NCBI GenBank assembly: GCA_964291215.2
Contig: OZ219791.1
Location: 1,664,001 to 1,728,000 of the forward strand
DNA: 64,000 bases
Source: Alphaproteobacteria bacterium
Lineage (GTDB): Bacteria; Pseudomonadota; Alphaproteobacteria; MPNO01; UBA830
Reading direction: 5' to 3'
A model generated the notes under the pieces. That model saw only the letters and a program-made list of their open reading frames with translations. It searched no databases and had not been told where the DNA came from. Both the position numbers and the translations under genes were made by a program. Below, one piece after another: positions 10,004-39,777 of the stretch (its first letter is position 1; each line of letters opens with the position of its first letter).

Positions 10004-10652
10004 CGCTAAAAAAGAGATCAAGCCGTGGCTGAAGCAGTACTGGTGCATTCCACCGCACCGGAGCGCACAGTTCGTGGCGGCGGACATGCTTGACATTTGT
10101 CAGCGGGACTTTGCCGGGAACGAGGTGCTGAGACCAGCCGGCAGCAGACGAAGCCCCCCCCCCCCCGGTCAGCCGGAGGTGGTCGACCATGAATATGAGC
10201 GCAACGGCCAACCTTTTCCTGGCCTTTACGCCCAACGAGAACTGGCGCACGGTGAAAGTCACCGACCGCTGCGGGACCGGGCGCACTTCATCCGGGAGCT
10301 TGCCGACGACCATTTCCCCGACAGGAAGATCGTGCTGGACAATCTGAACACGCACAGTCCCGCATCACTGTATGAAGCCTTCGAGCCCGAGGAGGCGGGT
10401 GCGAAAGCGGTTCGAGTTTCGCTACATGCCGAAGCACGGAAGCTGGCTCAACATGGCCGAGATCGGTGCGCTGTCGCGGCAATGCCTTCGGCGACGCATT
10501 CCCGACCGTGACACCATGCGACGGGAGACGGCGGCGTGGGTGGAACGGCGCAATGCGGCCGATGTCACTGTCGACTGGCGTTTCACGACGAAGGATGCCC
10601 GGACGAAACTGAAGTCTCTATATCCGTCAATCCAATAATTCCAGACTGCTAG
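10004..10652 (+). mobile_element. IS630-family relic (DDE half, frameshifted)
   Basis: KPWLKQYWCIP, DHEYERNG, IVLDNLNTH, MPKHGSWLNMAEI, WRFTTKDARTKLKSLYP; ends CTGCTAG. Confidence 0.86.
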
Positions 10653-11278
10653 GGCCGACACAGAGCGGCAGGGGGCGTTGGTGGCGGACTTCGAGGCGAG
10701 GGTGACGTCGATGCTCAGTTTCAAGGCGCTGGCGGGCCCGATCGAAATCTGGTTCCAGGACGAAGCGCGCGTCGGCCAAAAAGGGATGACGACGCGCGTC
10801 TGGGCGCATGGGAGGCAACGTCCGCGCATCGTGCGCGACTATCACTATGGCTATCTGTTCGGCGCCACCTGTGCATAGCGCGGCGTCGCCCATGTGGCGA
10901 ACAGGGCGAACTCGGCGGCGATGAACGAGCATCTGGCGGCGGTCGGCGCGGCCGTGGCGCCGGGTGCGCACGACGTGATCATACTGGACGGGGCAGGCTG
11001 GCATCGCTCGGGCGACCTTCTCGTGCCCCCCAACCTGACGCTCCTACATCTGCCGCCATACAGTCTGGAACTCAGTCCCATGGAGCAGATCGTCCTGGTC
11101 CTGAAATCGAACCGCTTCGCCAACCGTGTGTTCAAGGATGTCGCCGCCCTGAGGGAAGCCTGCGGGACGGCATGGCAATGGCTCATCGAGCAACCCGACA
11201 TCATCACCAAAACAACCCGACGAAGCTGAGCCATCGCGCCACAGTGACGACCCTCACGACTCAATGCATAGGTCTATA
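10653..11278 (+). mobile_element. IS630-family relic of a different subgroup
   Basis: IWFQDEARVGQKG, ILDGAGWH, LPPYSLELSPMEQ; internal stop; TATA end near 11275. Confidence 0.82.
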
Positions 11279-17887: not shown

Positions 17888-17942
17888 GCGCGCTTGGCGC
17901 GATTTTGCGCCCGGCGGCCGCTGGCGCTATACAGACTGCCAT

Positions 17943-18259
17943 GCGGGCGTGGCGAAATCGGTAGACGCAACGGACTTGGGGCCTGCTTGAGTGCGCGCGC
18001 GGAAACGCGCGACGTAGAACTGCTCAAATTCGGGGAAACCTGTCAGATGGCAATCCCGAGCCAAGCCCGGGCGGCGACTGATCGGCCGGGAAGGTGTAGA
18101 GACTAGACGGGCAGCGCCTAAGGCATGCGCTAGGGCGAAGGGATAGTCCAGACCACAAACCTGTCCCTCAAGATCGGGGCGGGGCGGCGAAAGCCGTAGA
18201 TGGTATGAAAATCCGTTGGGCGTATGCCCGTGGGGGTTCGAGTCCCCCCGCCCGCACCA
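17943..18259 (+). tRNA. tRNA-Leu(UAA) split by a group I intron; exons 17943-17977 and 18208-18259
   Basis: Acceptor stem GCGGGCG/CGCCCGC, discriminator A plus CCA, D-loop with GG, anticodon stem ACGGA/TCCGT, spliced loop CTT|AAAA, long variable arm GGGCGTATGCCC, T-arm GGGGG-TTCGAGT-CCCCC. Confidence 0.93.
17978..18207 (+). ncRNA. Group I self-splicing intron (IC3-like, 230 nt, no ORF)
   Basis: P TCAAATTCGGGGAA, Q AATCCCGAGCCAAGC, R GTAGAGACTAGACGG, S GAAGGGATAGTCCA; P7 GACTA/TAGTC; IGS GAGT pairs with exon ACTT giving a U.G at the splice site; GAAA tetraloops; terminal G at 18207. Confidence 0.92.
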
Positions 18260-20446: not shown

Positions 20447-20684
20447 TCATTGTCCGGCTGGCGGTGCGCGCCCAATGGTTCCGGATCGATCGATCCTGGC
20501 CCGTGTATTTCAGTAAGCCGTGGAAAGGCGCGTTTTCTGGCGGGCGGGAACCCGACCCAACAACTGTCGCTCCGGTACAACGGAAACCTTGTCGTACAGT
20601 TTCACACCCAGCTTGTTGGCGGCAGGCTGAAAAATTATCATCATCAGCGCCCGCCGCTGGCCTTTCGCCGTGCTGCCCAACGAG

Positions 20685-21321
20685 TGTTGTCGGTTGGATA
20701 AAACGGCGGGATTTCGGCGATTCGCCGCGCTTTTCAGGATCGTGTTTCTTTGCTGTTGTCAGGTCCTGTTGTCGCGGTTTCAGTGTTTGTCTGTTTGTCT
20801 CTGTGAATGCCGCCCGTTTTCTTCCCTGTTGTCGTTTCGGTCCGGTTCCGGTTTTTCTGCCGGCATGTGATCCGGGCTTCTGAGGGTTGTCGGGAGGGTT
20901 CTGGTGTTTCGTGGGATCGTCTGCCTTTCCTGTCGCCCGGGTCCTGTTGTCCGGGCCCGGGGCGCCCTCGCGACGCCAGCACCAACAGATCAGCATCGCC
21001 GCAAGAAGCCTTTCCAACGTCAGGACCATCGTCCTCGCGCAGGACCAAGACGAGGCCGGAGAACGTCAGGCCGAAACCCTGCGCACAAGGATGAAGGTTC
21101 CCCCTCGCGTCACGCTCCACAGACGCCGACCGCCAGAAAACGCCGACTGGAACGACATCATCAACACCAGAGCACAGGACCCGACAACAGGCAAAAAACG
21201 AAGACCGCGCGGCCTCTTGTCAACGCCGCACGTCCTTGTACCCGTGTTTGCCCAATCCACACACCGCTCAAAAGCGCGGTTCTCCGCCGAAATCCCGCCG
21301 TTCTGAATCGCCGCCGACAAC
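20685..21321. mobile_element. Putative miniature element bounded by long imperfect inverted repeats, carrying a Toprim fragment
   Basis: AACGGCGGGATTTCGGCGATTCGCCGCGCTTTT (20702-20734) versus AAAAGCGCGGTTCTCCGCCGAAATCCCGCCGTT (about 21270-21302); repeated GTTGTC/GACAAC cores. Confidence 0.5.
20980..21170 (+). pseudogene. Toprim domain fragment (plasmid/ICE primase-like)
   Basis: TIVLAQDQDEAGERQAETL...PPENADWNDII (DxDxAG and DWND motifs). Confidence 0.65.
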
Positions 21322-21367
21322 GAGCGATCTCTCCATCACCTGAATCAGCGGCCGGTGTCATCGGCAC

Positions 21368-21673
21368 CTAACCGGTTGCGTGCAGGCCCGTTCCGGCATC
21401 CAGCGTCGGCAGCTGAGCGATCTTCGCCCCGTTCTTCTGTTCCGCATACCGCAGTTCGTAGAGCTTCTGGAGGTTGAGCCAGGACTCCCCCGAGGAGCCG
21501 AAGATGTGTCCCAAACGCTGGGCGGTATCGCCGGTGACGGACCGCCGACCATCGAGAATCTCGGCGATGCGGTTTGCCGGCACTTCGATCTGCCGCGCCA
21601 ACTCCGCCGCGTTCATGCCGAGAGCGTCGAGGTCCTCGCGCAACGTCTCGCCGGGATGGATGGGTTCACGCAT
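21368..21673 (-). CDS. higA: HigA family addiction-module antitoxin
   Basis: PIHPGETLRE, AELAR, NRIAEILDGRRSVT, WLNLQKLYEL. Confidence 0.9.
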   Translation of the reverse strand: MREPIHPGETLREDLDALGMNAAELARQIEVPANRIAEILDGRRSVTGDTAQRLGHIFGSSGESWLNLQKLYELRYAEQKNGAKIAQLPTLDAGTGLHATG

Positions 21674-21686
21674 GTCAAACCTCTTC

Positions 21687-21897
21687 TCAATGGAAGTCGA
21701 CGATTTCCACCTCGGTCGGGCCGGGGCTGCCTTCAGGCGATTTGAATCAGATCTGCCACTGGTTTGTTGATGCGAGTGCTCGACGGCCCCCTGCGCCGCC
21801 CTCGATCGCCTTCAGACGATTGTCGGGACGCGCCAAGTTACCCAGGTGCGCGGCGGCATCGAACTGGTCGAGCTTGTAGGAAGCGCCGCAGGCAAAA
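21687..21897 (-). pseudogene. higB: HigB/RelE-like toxin pseudogene, 5' end replaced by an IS end
   Basis: KLDQFDAA..L..PDNRLKAI...RIN.QWQI*F...PTEVEIVDFH*, with frameshifts and a stop; lies directly upstream of higA. Confidence 0.7.
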
Positions 21898-21996
21898 CTC
21901 AGATGTCCTGACCTCGTGAGTTGACTTGATCCGTCCGGCTCCCCTTTTTTCCAACACAGTCAACGATTTTCCCGGTTTTTGCTTGACAACGTAGCC
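21898..21996 (+). mobile_element. Isolated about 100-bp end of an unclassified IS (same end as 36599-36698, inverted)
   Basis: TCAGATGTCCTGACCTCGTGAGTTGACTTGATC.GTCCGGCTCCCCTTTTTTCCAACACA.. closely matches the reverse complement of 36599-36698. Confidence 0.75.
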
Positions 21997-23600
21997 GTAA
22001 GCGTTCGTTCGTGCGGTGAGGTGTTGTTGCTTCTGTCCGTTTGACGGGCTTTTGTCAGGGAGTTCCAGCGTCACCCGGAGCGGTTTCGTGCACCGGGATG
22101 CGCGGTGAGGGGCACTGGCGCCATGCCGTGTTTCCCGCATTGGTTGCGGTTTTGTCCCGGCGTTGCGGAGGAGGAGCTGAGCGCCATCCTGTGCCGGTTG
22201 CAGGGGTCTGAGGGTCCGCTCCTTGCGGAGCGGGCCAGATGTCCTTCTTCGGCTTCTGTCATGTCGGTCGTAGCGGCCGCTGGTTGTTCCGACGCGGCCG
22301 GCAGACGCCGCGGCGCGGGCCCTCGACCAAGGTCTCGCAGGGCACGGGCGTGGTGTTGCAGCGCGCGGTCCATGCGGCGGTCGAGAAGCAGCGGCTCGCC
22401 GCATGGACCGCCTAGCGTATCTGCGCGCCGACCAGGCGCGTGTATCCGAGGTAGTATCAGCGGGCAACGAACTCGTTCCACAACTGGCCTTCTCGGGTGC
22501 CCACGATCCGGAAGTCAGCGGGCGGAGCTCGTCGAGGGTCTTCGGGGCGGCGGTGTGATCAGCTTCGGGGCTGGCGGCGGCAGAAGGCGCGGGCGATGGG
22601 GTCCGCTCCGTGATCGTTGCAGCCGCCGCATCTCCGCGACCATGAAGTCGCGCCCTCGACCTCACGGCGGCGCTGCGAATCTCCGCCGCCTCTCCGGGCT
22701 CACGGCAACCAGGGCGACAGATCGCCGGGCCGCCGTTCTCCGCGCAGGCATCAAGCCAGCGCAGAACATCGAGGCCGCTCCTCGCGACCGTGTACATGAC
22801 CGCCGACAGCCGTCCATGCTGTCGGAACCGAAGCCGGGCTTCCGCCCGTTGGCCGGGCCCCTGACAGCCCTTTCCCCGAAATTGTTGTCCATGGTCGACG
22901 AACACGCGATGGTTGAGCGCAGCGGCCTGCCTTCCGGCGCCGCTTTCGGAAGCCTCGGCGCTTCCGCAAACAGCGCGGCGACCGCAGTCTCCAGCGCCGC
23001 CTGCGCGGCCTGCCGCCGCCGACCGGCCGCCGGAAGCAGGGCAGTCGAGCCGTGTTCAGGCGGCAGATCTCCGCGATCGATCCATTCCCACCCCTCCAGC
23101 TGCGGCCGGCGCAGTCCGGAAAGTCGCGCCGACAATGCGCCTGGCAACAGCACAGGATGATGAAGGGCCACAGGCGCGCCAGCTTCTTGCAGGCGCCGTA
23201 GCGGCCGCAGACATGGGGGCGTCCGCGAACAGCTTCGCCGCGACCTCGGCGCTGCGCGAGGGAGAGAACCGCGTCACGGCTGACCGATGTCCGGAGCCAG
23301 GCGCGACTTCCGGACCTCCCTCGGGGCCTGGATGCATCGGCATGGCACAGACCCCGGTGCGCGGGGATCGCGTCCCGAAGCGGCTCGAACAGGGGCAGCA
23401 TCCGGCTCGCTGGCCAGCGTTCCCGGCGAAAGCCCCTGGACGCGGCGCAAGGGCCGCATGCACGCGCTCGTGCAGCACATGCGTCCACACCCGAATGCGG
23501 TGCCGGGAAACAGCCGCCACCGGTGAACCGAGGCAGTCACAGCCCCGGCGGACAATCCGCCGCTTTTGATCTCGATGATCCTGGTGCGAACCGTTGGCAA
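21997..23600 (-). mobile_element. Heavily decayed IS66 element: transposase relic about 22700-23600 plus DUF4338-like passenger relic
   Basis: IR GTAAGCG at 21997; pieces PLFEPLRDAI, HADA, CQAHCRRDF, MDNNFGERAVRG..NGRK...FGS. Confidence 0.7.
22365..22660 (-). pseudogene. DUF4338/DruA-like fragment
   Basis: PKTLDELRPL..RIVGTREGQLWNEFVAR*YYLGYTRLVGAQIR*AVH, matching the W....RYHYLG....GAQ.RY motif. Confidence 0.6.
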
Positions 23601-23701
23601 CGTGCCGCCTCGATGACCACCACTAAACGAATCGGCCTGCAGTGTCAAATCTCCACGAAAATCCGTTCGTTGCTCTACCCCGACATCAAGCCGGAACCAA
23701 G

Positions 23702-23767
23702 GGGTGAGCAGTTACGTTGCTTCTTGGTATCTGCTCACCCGCCTCTACGGAGGGGTGAGCAGATACC
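23702..23767. repeat. Three IS66(ISBst12)-type terminal repeats, two forming a perfect 15-bp IR with a 12-nt spacer
   Basis: GGGTGAGCAGTTAC 23702-23715; GGTATCTGCTCACCC 23726-23740 / GGGTGAGCAGATACC 23753-23767. Confidence 0.75.
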
Positions 23768-23879
23768 TCGCACAAACCGAACCTTCGCCGCAGGACTCTG
23801 ATCGCTCCGAGGACGAACTCACGAAAGATACCATCGCTGAAATCGCCCGGATTCGCCACGATCGCTAAGCCCGCAAGAC

Positions 23880-24280
23880 ATGGACCTTGTCCTGATTGCA
23901 ATGTTCTTATGTCGGTGGCTCGATTCAGAGAGGTGTGCATCAGCGTGATCATTCAGGCGATGCGTGATTACGAGATTGTGCTCTCCGTGCCCATACTTAA
24001 GGAGAACAAAGCCGTTGTCGGACGCTTCGGGCGCGCTATGTACCGGGAAGGTCTGTTCGCCATCATTGGGGAACTTGAGCGAGGCGCTGTATTGGTCGAA
24101 CCGTCAGATGTCGCGTTCGGGCTCGCTGATCCGGATGACGAAGTCTGCCTGGCGACTGCGACGGCTGGCGGAGCCGCTCTCATTACGGGCAACAGCCGGC
24201 ACTTCACGCAAGCACGATAGGGGTTGGTGGAAGTTCTTTCTCTGCGCAGCTTCCTCGATCGAACGGCCCGGGCGGTGCCT
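23880..24280 (+). pseudogene. PIN-domain toxin (TIGR00305-like) pseudogene, with a small antitoxin remnant upstream
   Basis: MDLVL/(D)CNVLMS frameshift, ADPDDEVCLATA..GG..LITGNSRHF, premature TAG at 24218-24220 then LVEVLSLRSFL. Confidence 0.7.
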
Positions 24281-38952: not shown

Positions 38953-39777
38953 TCAGGTGTAGTACGGGTTGGCACCGGCGGCGTGGTCGGTGACGTCGAC
39001 GACATGGGCGATGGACGGCACCAGCCGCTTGATCTCGACCTCGACGCCCTGACGCAGCGTTGCCGATGAGGCGGAGCATCCCTGGCATCCGCCTTCGAGT
39101 CGAACGAAAGCGGTATTTTCCTTGACGTCGATCAGCGAGATATGGCCGCCATGGGCGGCAACCTGCGGATTTATGTGCACGTCCAGCAATTCGAGGATTG
39201 CCTTGCCTTCCTCGGTCTGCAGTCCCGGCCGGTCCTCCAGTTCGATGGCGTCCCGCACATCCTCGACCTCGGGAACGTAGTGTCCGAGCATGTTCCGGAT
39301 CGGTTGCATCAGCCCGTAGGCGGCTCCGTCGAAACGCAGATAGGCAACGTTGTCACGAAAGTCGACGAAGGAGACATCGCCACCGCCGTCCCTGGCCGCC
39401 GGACGGATGCGGGTTTCGACGATTTCCGCGATTTCGGCAGCGGGACCTGTCAACTCCCGATCCTCTTCGGCATCCGGCCGGACCGTGGCCTGTTCCTCGA
39501 TGACGGGCATGCCCGACATGAAATGGTCCATGATCGCGGCGAGGATGCGCGGCCGCAATTCGTGCCATTCAGCGTCCGGAGTCCGCGTCACGCGTATCTC
39601 GTCCGTGCCGAGCGCGATCCGCGAGATCGATCCGAGTTCGAACAACCGTTTTGCCAGCGGGATTCTCGCGGCCTCCGCCGGCGACGCCAGATCGAGGCTG
39701 CCGCTCGCGAGCACCTCGCGGCCGGGCAGAAACCTGACGGTCTCGGCACTCAGTGTGTCTTCGGTCTGTATGAACAT
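38953..39777 (-). CDS. NifU/NFU1-family Fe-S scaffold with a duplicated C-terminal domain
   Basis: MFIQTE..(Nfu_N); IRPAARDGGGDV (no CxxC); INPQVAAHGG..GGCQGC. Confidence 0.85.
   Translation of the reverse strand: MFIQTEDTLSAETVRFLPGREVLASGSLDLASPAEAARIPLAKRLFELGSISRIALGTDEIRVTRTPDAEWHELRPRILAAIMDHFMSGMPVIEEQATVRPDAEEDRELTGPAAEIAEIVETRIRPAARDGGGDVSFVDFRDNVAYLRFDGAAYGLMQPIRNMLGHYVPEVEDVRDAIELEDRPGLQTEEGKAILELLDVHINPQVAAHGGHISLIDVKENTAFVRLEGGCQGCSASSATLRQGVEVEIKRLVPSIAHVVDVTDHAAGANPYYT

Follow-up and report, generated by a model that had tools for sequence, protein, structure and literature searches.

A classical Leu(UAA)-type group I intron in the only tRNA-Leu(UAA) gene of a probable alphaproteobacterium

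The only tRNA-Leu(UAA) gene of the genome studied here is split at the U^AA site of its anticodon, and the interrupting segment is confirmed, as far as sequence comparison can tell, as a group I intron of IC3-type anatomy. Very probably this intron is active, belongs to the classical tRNA-Leu(UAA) class and is likely to remove itself in two guanosine-started steps. Positions refer to the window, meaning the whole analysed stretch of 64,000 nucleotides; the host genome is designated G000 and its relatives are labelled G001, G002 and so forth.

Joining 17943-17977 to 18208-18259 yields an 87-nt tRNA-Leu(UAA) for which ARAGORN draws a full cloverleaf with a long variable arm and CCA. Run in intron mode, the same program independently returned the identical 230-nt intron, i(36,230), and a single one of 49 junction offsets tried combined a UAA anticodon with a U as the last base of the 5' exon and a G as the last base of the intron. 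An intron of 230 nt at U^AA of tRNA-Leu(UAA) had been proposed in a preliminary description of this DNA, and both its coordinates and its length prove exact by ARAGORN and by exon joining. In default mode ARAGORN called no tRNA in the 64-kb window; by default calling the genome thus appears to be without a tRNA-Leu(UAA), an annotation gap that the split gene closes. The gene comprises the following features:

17905..17933, plus strand: likely promoter of the tRNA gene, TTGCGC, a 17-nt spacer and TATACA, a putative function read from the sequence
17943..17977, plus strand: 5' exon of tRNA-Leu(UAA), ending at U34, its terminal ACUU being the 5' strand of P1
17978..18207, plus strand: group I intron at the Leu.3Ug site, ORF-free, 230 nt, 63% G+C, terminal G
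18208..18259, plus strand: 3' exon of tRNA-Leu(UAA), with the long variable arm and an encoded CCA

The promoter-like hexamers and their 17-nt spacing are conserved in G001 and in G004, the spacer sequence itself differing in G004. A generic sigma-70 promoter scan and a terminator scan called nothing at the locus, the TTGCGC/TATACA element included. The preliminary description was right that the intron lacks a homing endonuclease, as its longest sense-strand open stretch measures 39 aa. ARAGORN intron mode also proposed a second split tRNA, a tRNA-Arg(CCU) at 39084-39405 on the minus strand. We rejected this call as a false positive because the DNA reads by eye as protein-coding (an NfuA-like ORF), Rfam gives one group I intron genome-wide and an uninterrupted Arg(CCU) gene lies elsewhere.

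The Rfam model RF00028 matches positions 17979-18178 over its whole length (E 1.8e-9), and this match is the sole one in the host genome. In this check against Rfam, which the preliminary description had proposed, the score of 44.7 bits stays under the gathering score of 50 bits. Bacterial tRNA introns have been accepted from 18-20 bits, and no bacterial sequences were among the original seed sequences (Williams 2020, bioRxiv 10.1101/2020.01.27.920355).

The structure was assessed on a MAFFT alignment of 105 distinct genes, made of the G000 gene, those of four relatives and 100 loci from a genome scan; three long introns, one long intron mis-called in mapping, one intron with a doubtful 5' end and 15 unmappable loci were excluded. 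These rows are related to each other; the helices were drawn on the window's intron and pairs were counted in each row. Both the terminal G and the 3' strand of P7 were prescribed by the search pattern, and mapping required the U before the intron, so that these invariances exist by construction. The elements of the intron, all on the plus strand, are:

17978..17992, plus strand: P1 extension and L1 with the GGGG start, pairing as G.U, G.U and G-C with 17986-17988
17989-17992, plus strand: internal guide sequence GAGU, of which G17989 wobbles with U34
17987-17988, plus strand: possible P10, a UU that can pair with AA of the 3' exon
17993..18015, plus strand: P2 with its GAAA tetraloop (18002-18005), showing many two-sided changes
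18020..18114, plus strand: core helices P3 (18020-18025/18109-18114) and P4 (18030-18035/18054-18059)
Within 18020..18114, plus strand: short P5 (18039-18050), P6 (18060-18062/18093-18095), P6a (18066-18070/18086-18090) and J6/7 GUA
18099..18149, plus strand: P7 (18099-18105/18144-18149) with bulged A18100
18115-18137, plus strand: P8 with the tetraloop-receptor variant CCUAAG/UAGGG
18152..18207, plus strand: P9.0 (18152-18155/18201-18204) and terminal G18207
18160-18183, plus strand: variable extra hairpin, whose column-wise pairing reaches only 49%
18184-18197, plus strand: P9 with its GAAA loop (18189-18192)

Across the 105 rows, pairing amounts to 97% in P1, 86% in P2, 100% in P3, 99% in P4, 100% in P5, 99% in P6, 89% in P6a, 100% in P7, 98% in P8 and 92% in both P9.0 and P9; control partners shifted by one or two columns pair in 2-68%. 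Two-sided changes are found in every helix except P1 (84 in P3, 28 in P5, 110 in P8). The helices P3, P4, P6, P7 and P8, including the P3/P7 pseudoknot, are 98-100% paired with two-sided changes in all five. P10 is paired in 89%, which is no better than slid controls because only A residues stand on its exon side. The G partner in the P1 wobble U17977.G17989 occurs in 105/105 rows although the search did not require it, and both J6/7 = GUA and the bulged A of P7 occur in 105/105. Group I introns bind guanosine at a G-C pair in P7, and the corresponding pair G18101-C18148, following bulged A18100, is invariant in the 105 rows. The statement that all core elements are present is thereby upheld, since P1 with its U.G through to P9 can be drawn and the helices hold across the homologues.

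IC3 introns carry GNRA loops on P2 and P9 and the receptors for them in P8 and P5. The host intron displays the two GAAA loops (conserved in 99/105 rows in L2 and in 97/105 in L9), CCUAAG/UAGGG in P8 and tandem C-G pairs in P5. It has no P5a-d extension, P5 being a 12-nt hairpin, and an excerpt of PMC11835236 gives P5(a-d) as absent from IC3.

The site CUU/...g/AAAA defines Leu.3Ug, one of four classical classes, all IC3, that together account for 3,453 of 5,292 introns; the same survey holds 72 Leu.3Cg introns, all in Proteobacteria (Williams 2020, 10.1101/2020.01.27.920355). The host intron shares with Leu.3Ug the site between U34 and A35, the U at -1 and the terminal G, and no difference that matters separates them. 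Williams 2020 may already count many proteobacterial Leu.3Ug cases, plasmid copies included.

How common are such introns? Among 60 relatives, four carry one at the U^AA site, namely G001 (97%), G004 (85%), G055 from another family (84%) and G003 (71%), making the distribution patchy in the order-level sample (5/61 genomes including G000). An uninterrupted UAA junction was seen in 48/60 relatives and in none of the four intron carriers. In a class-wide sample of 400 other genomes, each at least 90% complete, an exact pattern joining the 3' end of the intron to the 3' exon matched 23 (about 6%, a lower bound), or 21/295 genera when G000 is counted; a reversed-pattern control gave 0. Scanning one genome per species in an all-genome collection with the exact pattern gave at least 120 matches, of which at least 104 could be placed in a Leu(UAA) gene with U at -1. 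Pseudomonadota, Acidobacteriota, Planctomycetota, Bacteroidota, Bacillota, Chloroflexota, Bdellovibrionota and Binatota are represented among the matches listed. No cyanobacterium is named in the record titles of the 120 matches listed, the pattern having been chosen to disfavour cyanobacteria. The opinion that this site is only sporadically occupied outside cyanobacteria and plastids finds no support in the 23 class genomes and at least 104 all-genome loci. With about 6% of the sampled class genomes carrying the intron, the cyanobacterial and plastid picture is outdated. Literature searches, with older subscription papers outside their reach, found no paper devoted to alphaproteobacterial Leu(UAA) introns.

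The features singled out at first as distinctive lose most of their weight in this comparison. Among the matches listed, intron length has a median of 235 nt and a range of 194-702, with 44/104 at or under 230, and 20/104 reach a G+C content of at least 63%; at 230 nt the host intron is of average length, and its 63% G+C matches the 64% of the genome, so neither value sets it apart as a small, GC-rich ribozyme. The canonical P8 receptor is CCUAAG/UAUGG, a form found in 9/105 rows. The receptor comes in 44 variants in the 105 rows, 31/105 having G at the variable position and 6/105 the exact CCTAAG/TAGGG. P5 measures 12 nt or less in 41/70 measurable rows, and some hairpin folds before P9 in 85/104. 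All the features listed in the preliminary description are indeed present in the sequence, but the P8 variant, the short P5 and the P9 hairpin are common, and it is the GGG start that is restricted, to G000, G001 and G004 (L002-L004) of one genus (3/105). In G004 the P1 extension is kept, its partner strand being altered to CCCU. The preliminary description had made novelty depend on the rarity of such introns; they are common, and this one is an ordinary Leu.3Ug member. Taken alone, the locus is of little consequence and brings a further small IC3 ribozyme to a large natural set; the class, taken together, is of greater use.

The host genome is 99.3% complete and holds tRNA-Leu(UAA) in single copy; its other leucine tRNAs (GAG, CAG, CAA and UAG) are all uninterrupted, and a search of G000 found no other UAA gene or half-gene. 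By established decoding rules the anticodons GAG, CAG, CAA and UAG do not read UUA, a codon that occurs 399 times in 339 of 2,713 crudely called ORFs. Because this is the genome's only tRNA-Leu(UAA) and no other tRNA reads UUA, we infer that splicing takes place and must work in the cell.

By the chemistry expected of group I introns, an exogenous guanosine held in P7 would attack after U34, the position marked by the P1 U.G wobble. The freed exon would then attack after the terminal G, in a register set by P9.0 and the short P10, and the GAAA loops of P2 and P9 would dock on P8 and P5. This mechanism, and the bias of group I introns towards tRNA and rRNA genes, are covered in the excerpted text of Hausner 2014.

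The joined junction of the tRNA-Leu(UAA) gene was found in none of eight public runs, all of them contigs, which cannot show absence. In three sponge or host-associated RNA runs, contigs contain unspliced pieces of close relatives. Joints across the intron that looked like spliced product were rejected, as their differing variable arms or anticodons assign them to other tRNA genes. These contigs speak neither for nor against splicing. That the intron is dead, the gene a pseudogene and UUA read by another tRNA would agree with the lack of spliced RNA in the eight runs, with the Rfam score under its cut-off and with UUA being the rarest leucine codon of the host. It is nonetheless very improbable: there is no other UAA gene and the CAA anticodon cannot read UUA, the core is intact, the differences from G001 and G004 preserve pairing, and the promoter-like element is conserved.

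A more serious, though still unlikely, alternative is that the intron is not self-sufficient and requires a host protein, an RNA chaperone or a maturase-like helper, for a useful splicing rate. Both its P1 extension and its P10 offer little stability (wobble pairs, 2 bp). The G+C-rich RNA has many near-equal folds (MFE frequency 0.001; z -1.54 against shuffles, 14/200 of which fold as well), folding energy being uninformative for a pseudoknotted ribozyme. Host factors are reported for some group I introns in the excerpted Hausner 2014. Against such a dependence, every catalytic position matches the class consensus and both GAAA loop-receptor pairs are present; the relatives work in very different hosts, which suggests little need for any particular one. 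An intron that removes itself remains our reading.

Two-piece tmRNA and GcrA are class markers of Alphaproteobacteria. The host has a two-piece tmRNA according to ARAGORN and matches to the GcrA family, but the GcrA control matched Caulobacter and also Sulfolobus. Both markers agree with the probable alphaproteobacterial host named in the preliminary description. The genes around the split tRNA run in the order glnD, murJ, luciferase-like, GST, tRNA, FAD oxidoreductase and SixA-like. This order from glnD to the SixA-like gene is conserved in G001, and in G004 without the GST. Some 3.7 kb beyond the SixA-like gene (window 20511-24180) are missing from G001 and G004; this region contains an HTH antitoxin-like ORF (21368-21673) and a weak PIN match (23909-24220). 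IS-type DDE fragments in the window lie also at 10074-11229.

On the origin of the split gene, we hold it for somewhat probable that a common ancestor of G000, G001 and G004 received the tRNA gene and its intron jointly through horizontal transfer, that the pair took the place of the uninterrupted gene of the family and that it has since been inherited in place. The exons of G000 show 95-97% identity to their counterparts in the split genes of Thermohalobaculum, Sphingobium and G055, and only 67-80% to 36 uninterrupted tRNA-Leu(UAA) genes of its own genus, family and order (77% in G002). Such close exons in distant intron-bearing genes, against at most 80% in relatives, point to transfer of the whole gene. 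Across the 105 genes, exon and intron identities correlate (Spearman 0.72, reached in 0/500 permutations), a relation that is not independent of host kinship. Complete intron-split genes are present on conjugative plasmids. Additionally, the split gene of G055 is preceded, at a distance of 45 bp, by an orphan 5' half from a different tRNA-Leu(UAA) gene, and such halves lie within the flanks of about 1 kb in 8/98 other loci (7/75 scan loci and 1/23 class loci). An orphan half upstream is as expected after integration of an element bringing a replacement gene.

The orphan halves are of the uninterrupted type and are listed at 80-430 bp upstream, as L037:5304-5342 (G055) on the minus strand and in L040, L045, L050, L062, L069, L090, L118 and L240. 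An island-borne replacement in G000 itself was considered and rejected, as there is no displaced tRNA half and none of the 13 neighbouring ORFs scanned (GlnD, MurJ, luciferase-like, GST, FAD oxidoreductase, SixA-like and IS-type DDE fragments) is a tyrosine integrase.

Some observations go against transfer. In G009 the uninterrupted gene, too, has the downstream oxidoreductase nearby, and the locus may accordingly be near the ancestral one; uninterrupted genes of the G000 exon type also exist in other organisms (metagenome DNA contigs). Two independent acquisitions within the genus were considered, as in the intron tree G003 falls in a clade supported at 97/99, separate from the group of G000, G001 and G004 (96/100), the bootstrap not having converged. 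A single clade for the genus's four introns was, however, not rejected by the AU test (p 0.60; 99 rows after exclusion of 6 long-branch rows, on a poorly searched quick tree).

The same active intron might also have entered the resident tRNA gene alone, through homing by an HNH endonuclease since lost or through reverse splicing, a scenario we regard as possible but doubtful. A homing route exists in the class, as an HNH-type ORF is carried by the long introns (about 685-702 nt) of four of the 120 matched loci listed, and the tRNAs Arg(CCU), Thr(UGU) and Thr(CGU) of relatives contain related introns. The exons of G003 are 89% like a native exon type of the family, and the locus sits in the backbone. 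Against this scenario, the exons of G000 resemble none of the 36 uninterrupted genes sampled from the order and are very like those of distant intron-bearing genes. A single HNH query found no relative in G000, a weak argument in the same direction. The joint arrival of gene and intron remains the reading we prefer.

The HNH-type ORFs of the four long Leu(UAA) introns, 158-176 aa in length, are found at L087:163-666, L091:1453-1926, L093:1349-1876 and L097:637-1143. Two are sense and two antisense to the intron, and they are candidate tRNA-Leu homing endonucleases.

Going further, endonuclease-free tRNA-Leu(UAA) introns could spread among proteobacteria as whole cassettes of tRNA and intron, on integrative elements and conjugative plasmids, that replace the host gene. 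G000 would then be an old domesticated product, and the same family would have reached enterobacteria in the aac(3)-IId module. We give this general proposal even chances. If true, cassette spread would explain the long-noted patchy distribution without homing, and the exon evidence offers a testable route of spread that needs no homing endonuclease.

Several plasmids carry relatives of the split gene. A complete intron-split tRNA-Leu(UAA) gene lies on pCTX-M3 (NC_004464.2, L216:3958-4256), flanked on one side by ISCfr1, DUF3883 and two small ORFs and on the other by an AAA-ATPase, aac(3)-IId and IS26. Of 72,556 plasmid records, 1,257 contain at least 80% of this gene, with 1,273 matches of 99% identity or more; their hosts include Escherichia, Klebsiella, Salmonella and Acinetobacter. 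The pCTX-M3-type gene also occurs in 625 of 5,426 complete E. coli genomes, unannotated in the 10 matches listed, and the E. coli plasmid NZ_CP135650.1 has the same gene truncated within the intron (L218:3958-4175). In the tree, the pCTX-M3 intron (a row including five exon bases) groups with introns of Enterovirga and Bradyrhizobiaceae in a mostly alphaproteobacterial clade; this placement suggests that the aac(3)-IId module may have come from an alphaproteobacterium, and the split gene may be a marker of its origin. The literature listings contained no published mention of a split tRNA-Leu(UAA) gene in this module. On the Bradyrhizobium plasmid CP094621.1, a complete tRNA-Leu(UAA) with a 204-nt intron (L217:4959-5249) lies about 2 kb from trb conjugation genes; split genes of this type are on four plasmid records.

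Among other known tRNA introns, the cyanobacterial and plastid trnL(UAA) intron shares, by description, the gene, the insertion site and the subgroup anatomy. According to an excerpt of PMC4476775, that intron is present in most cyanobacteria, whereas the one described here is patchy even at the level of the order.

The Azoarcus BH72 tRNA-Ile intron is in use as a 197-nt ribozyme form, and 816 Azoarcus homologues already serve in ribozyme design (excerpt of PMC12373953), so that one more small natural ribozyme adds little. By description, this IC3 intron and the host's are both small and without P5abc, with GAAA on P2 and P9 and a P8 receptor of the 11-nt type. The insertion there is in tRNA-Ile(CAU), as Ile2.5Ug, and here in tRNA-Leu(UAA), which places the host intron outside Ile2.5Ug. 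In the Azoarcus intron P5 is longer and contains an 11-nt receptor, and P9 is not preceded by a hairpin; the host intron differs by its 12-nt P5 with tandem C-G pairs and by the extra hairpin before P9.

Related short introns interrupt other tRNAs of relatives, Thr(UGU), Thr(CGU) and Arg(CCU), at L032:2651-2940 (G004), L033:2237-2527 and L007:1430-1717 (G048), with further ones at L008:1384-1665 (G021) and L009:1380-1667 (G017). Isotypes were read by eye, two having been mislabelled Ile by ARAGORN; G004 and G048 have two split tRNAs each, and Arg(CCU) cases are found in G021 and G048. A phage collection yielded 6 matches, all partial, and the Gordonia phage Daredevil has an unannotated 77% match to the intron core (NC_048021.1:41897-42013). 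Paquin reportedly described tRNA-Arg(CCU) introns in alphaproteobacteria in 1999, and Vepritskiy is said to have found a tRNA-Leu(UAA) intron in a subsurface gammaproteobacterium in 2002. Those introns and the one analysed here are alike as sporadic, horizontally spread IC3 tRNA introns; those were single reports, whereas the Leu(UAA) counts obtained here show such introns to be common.
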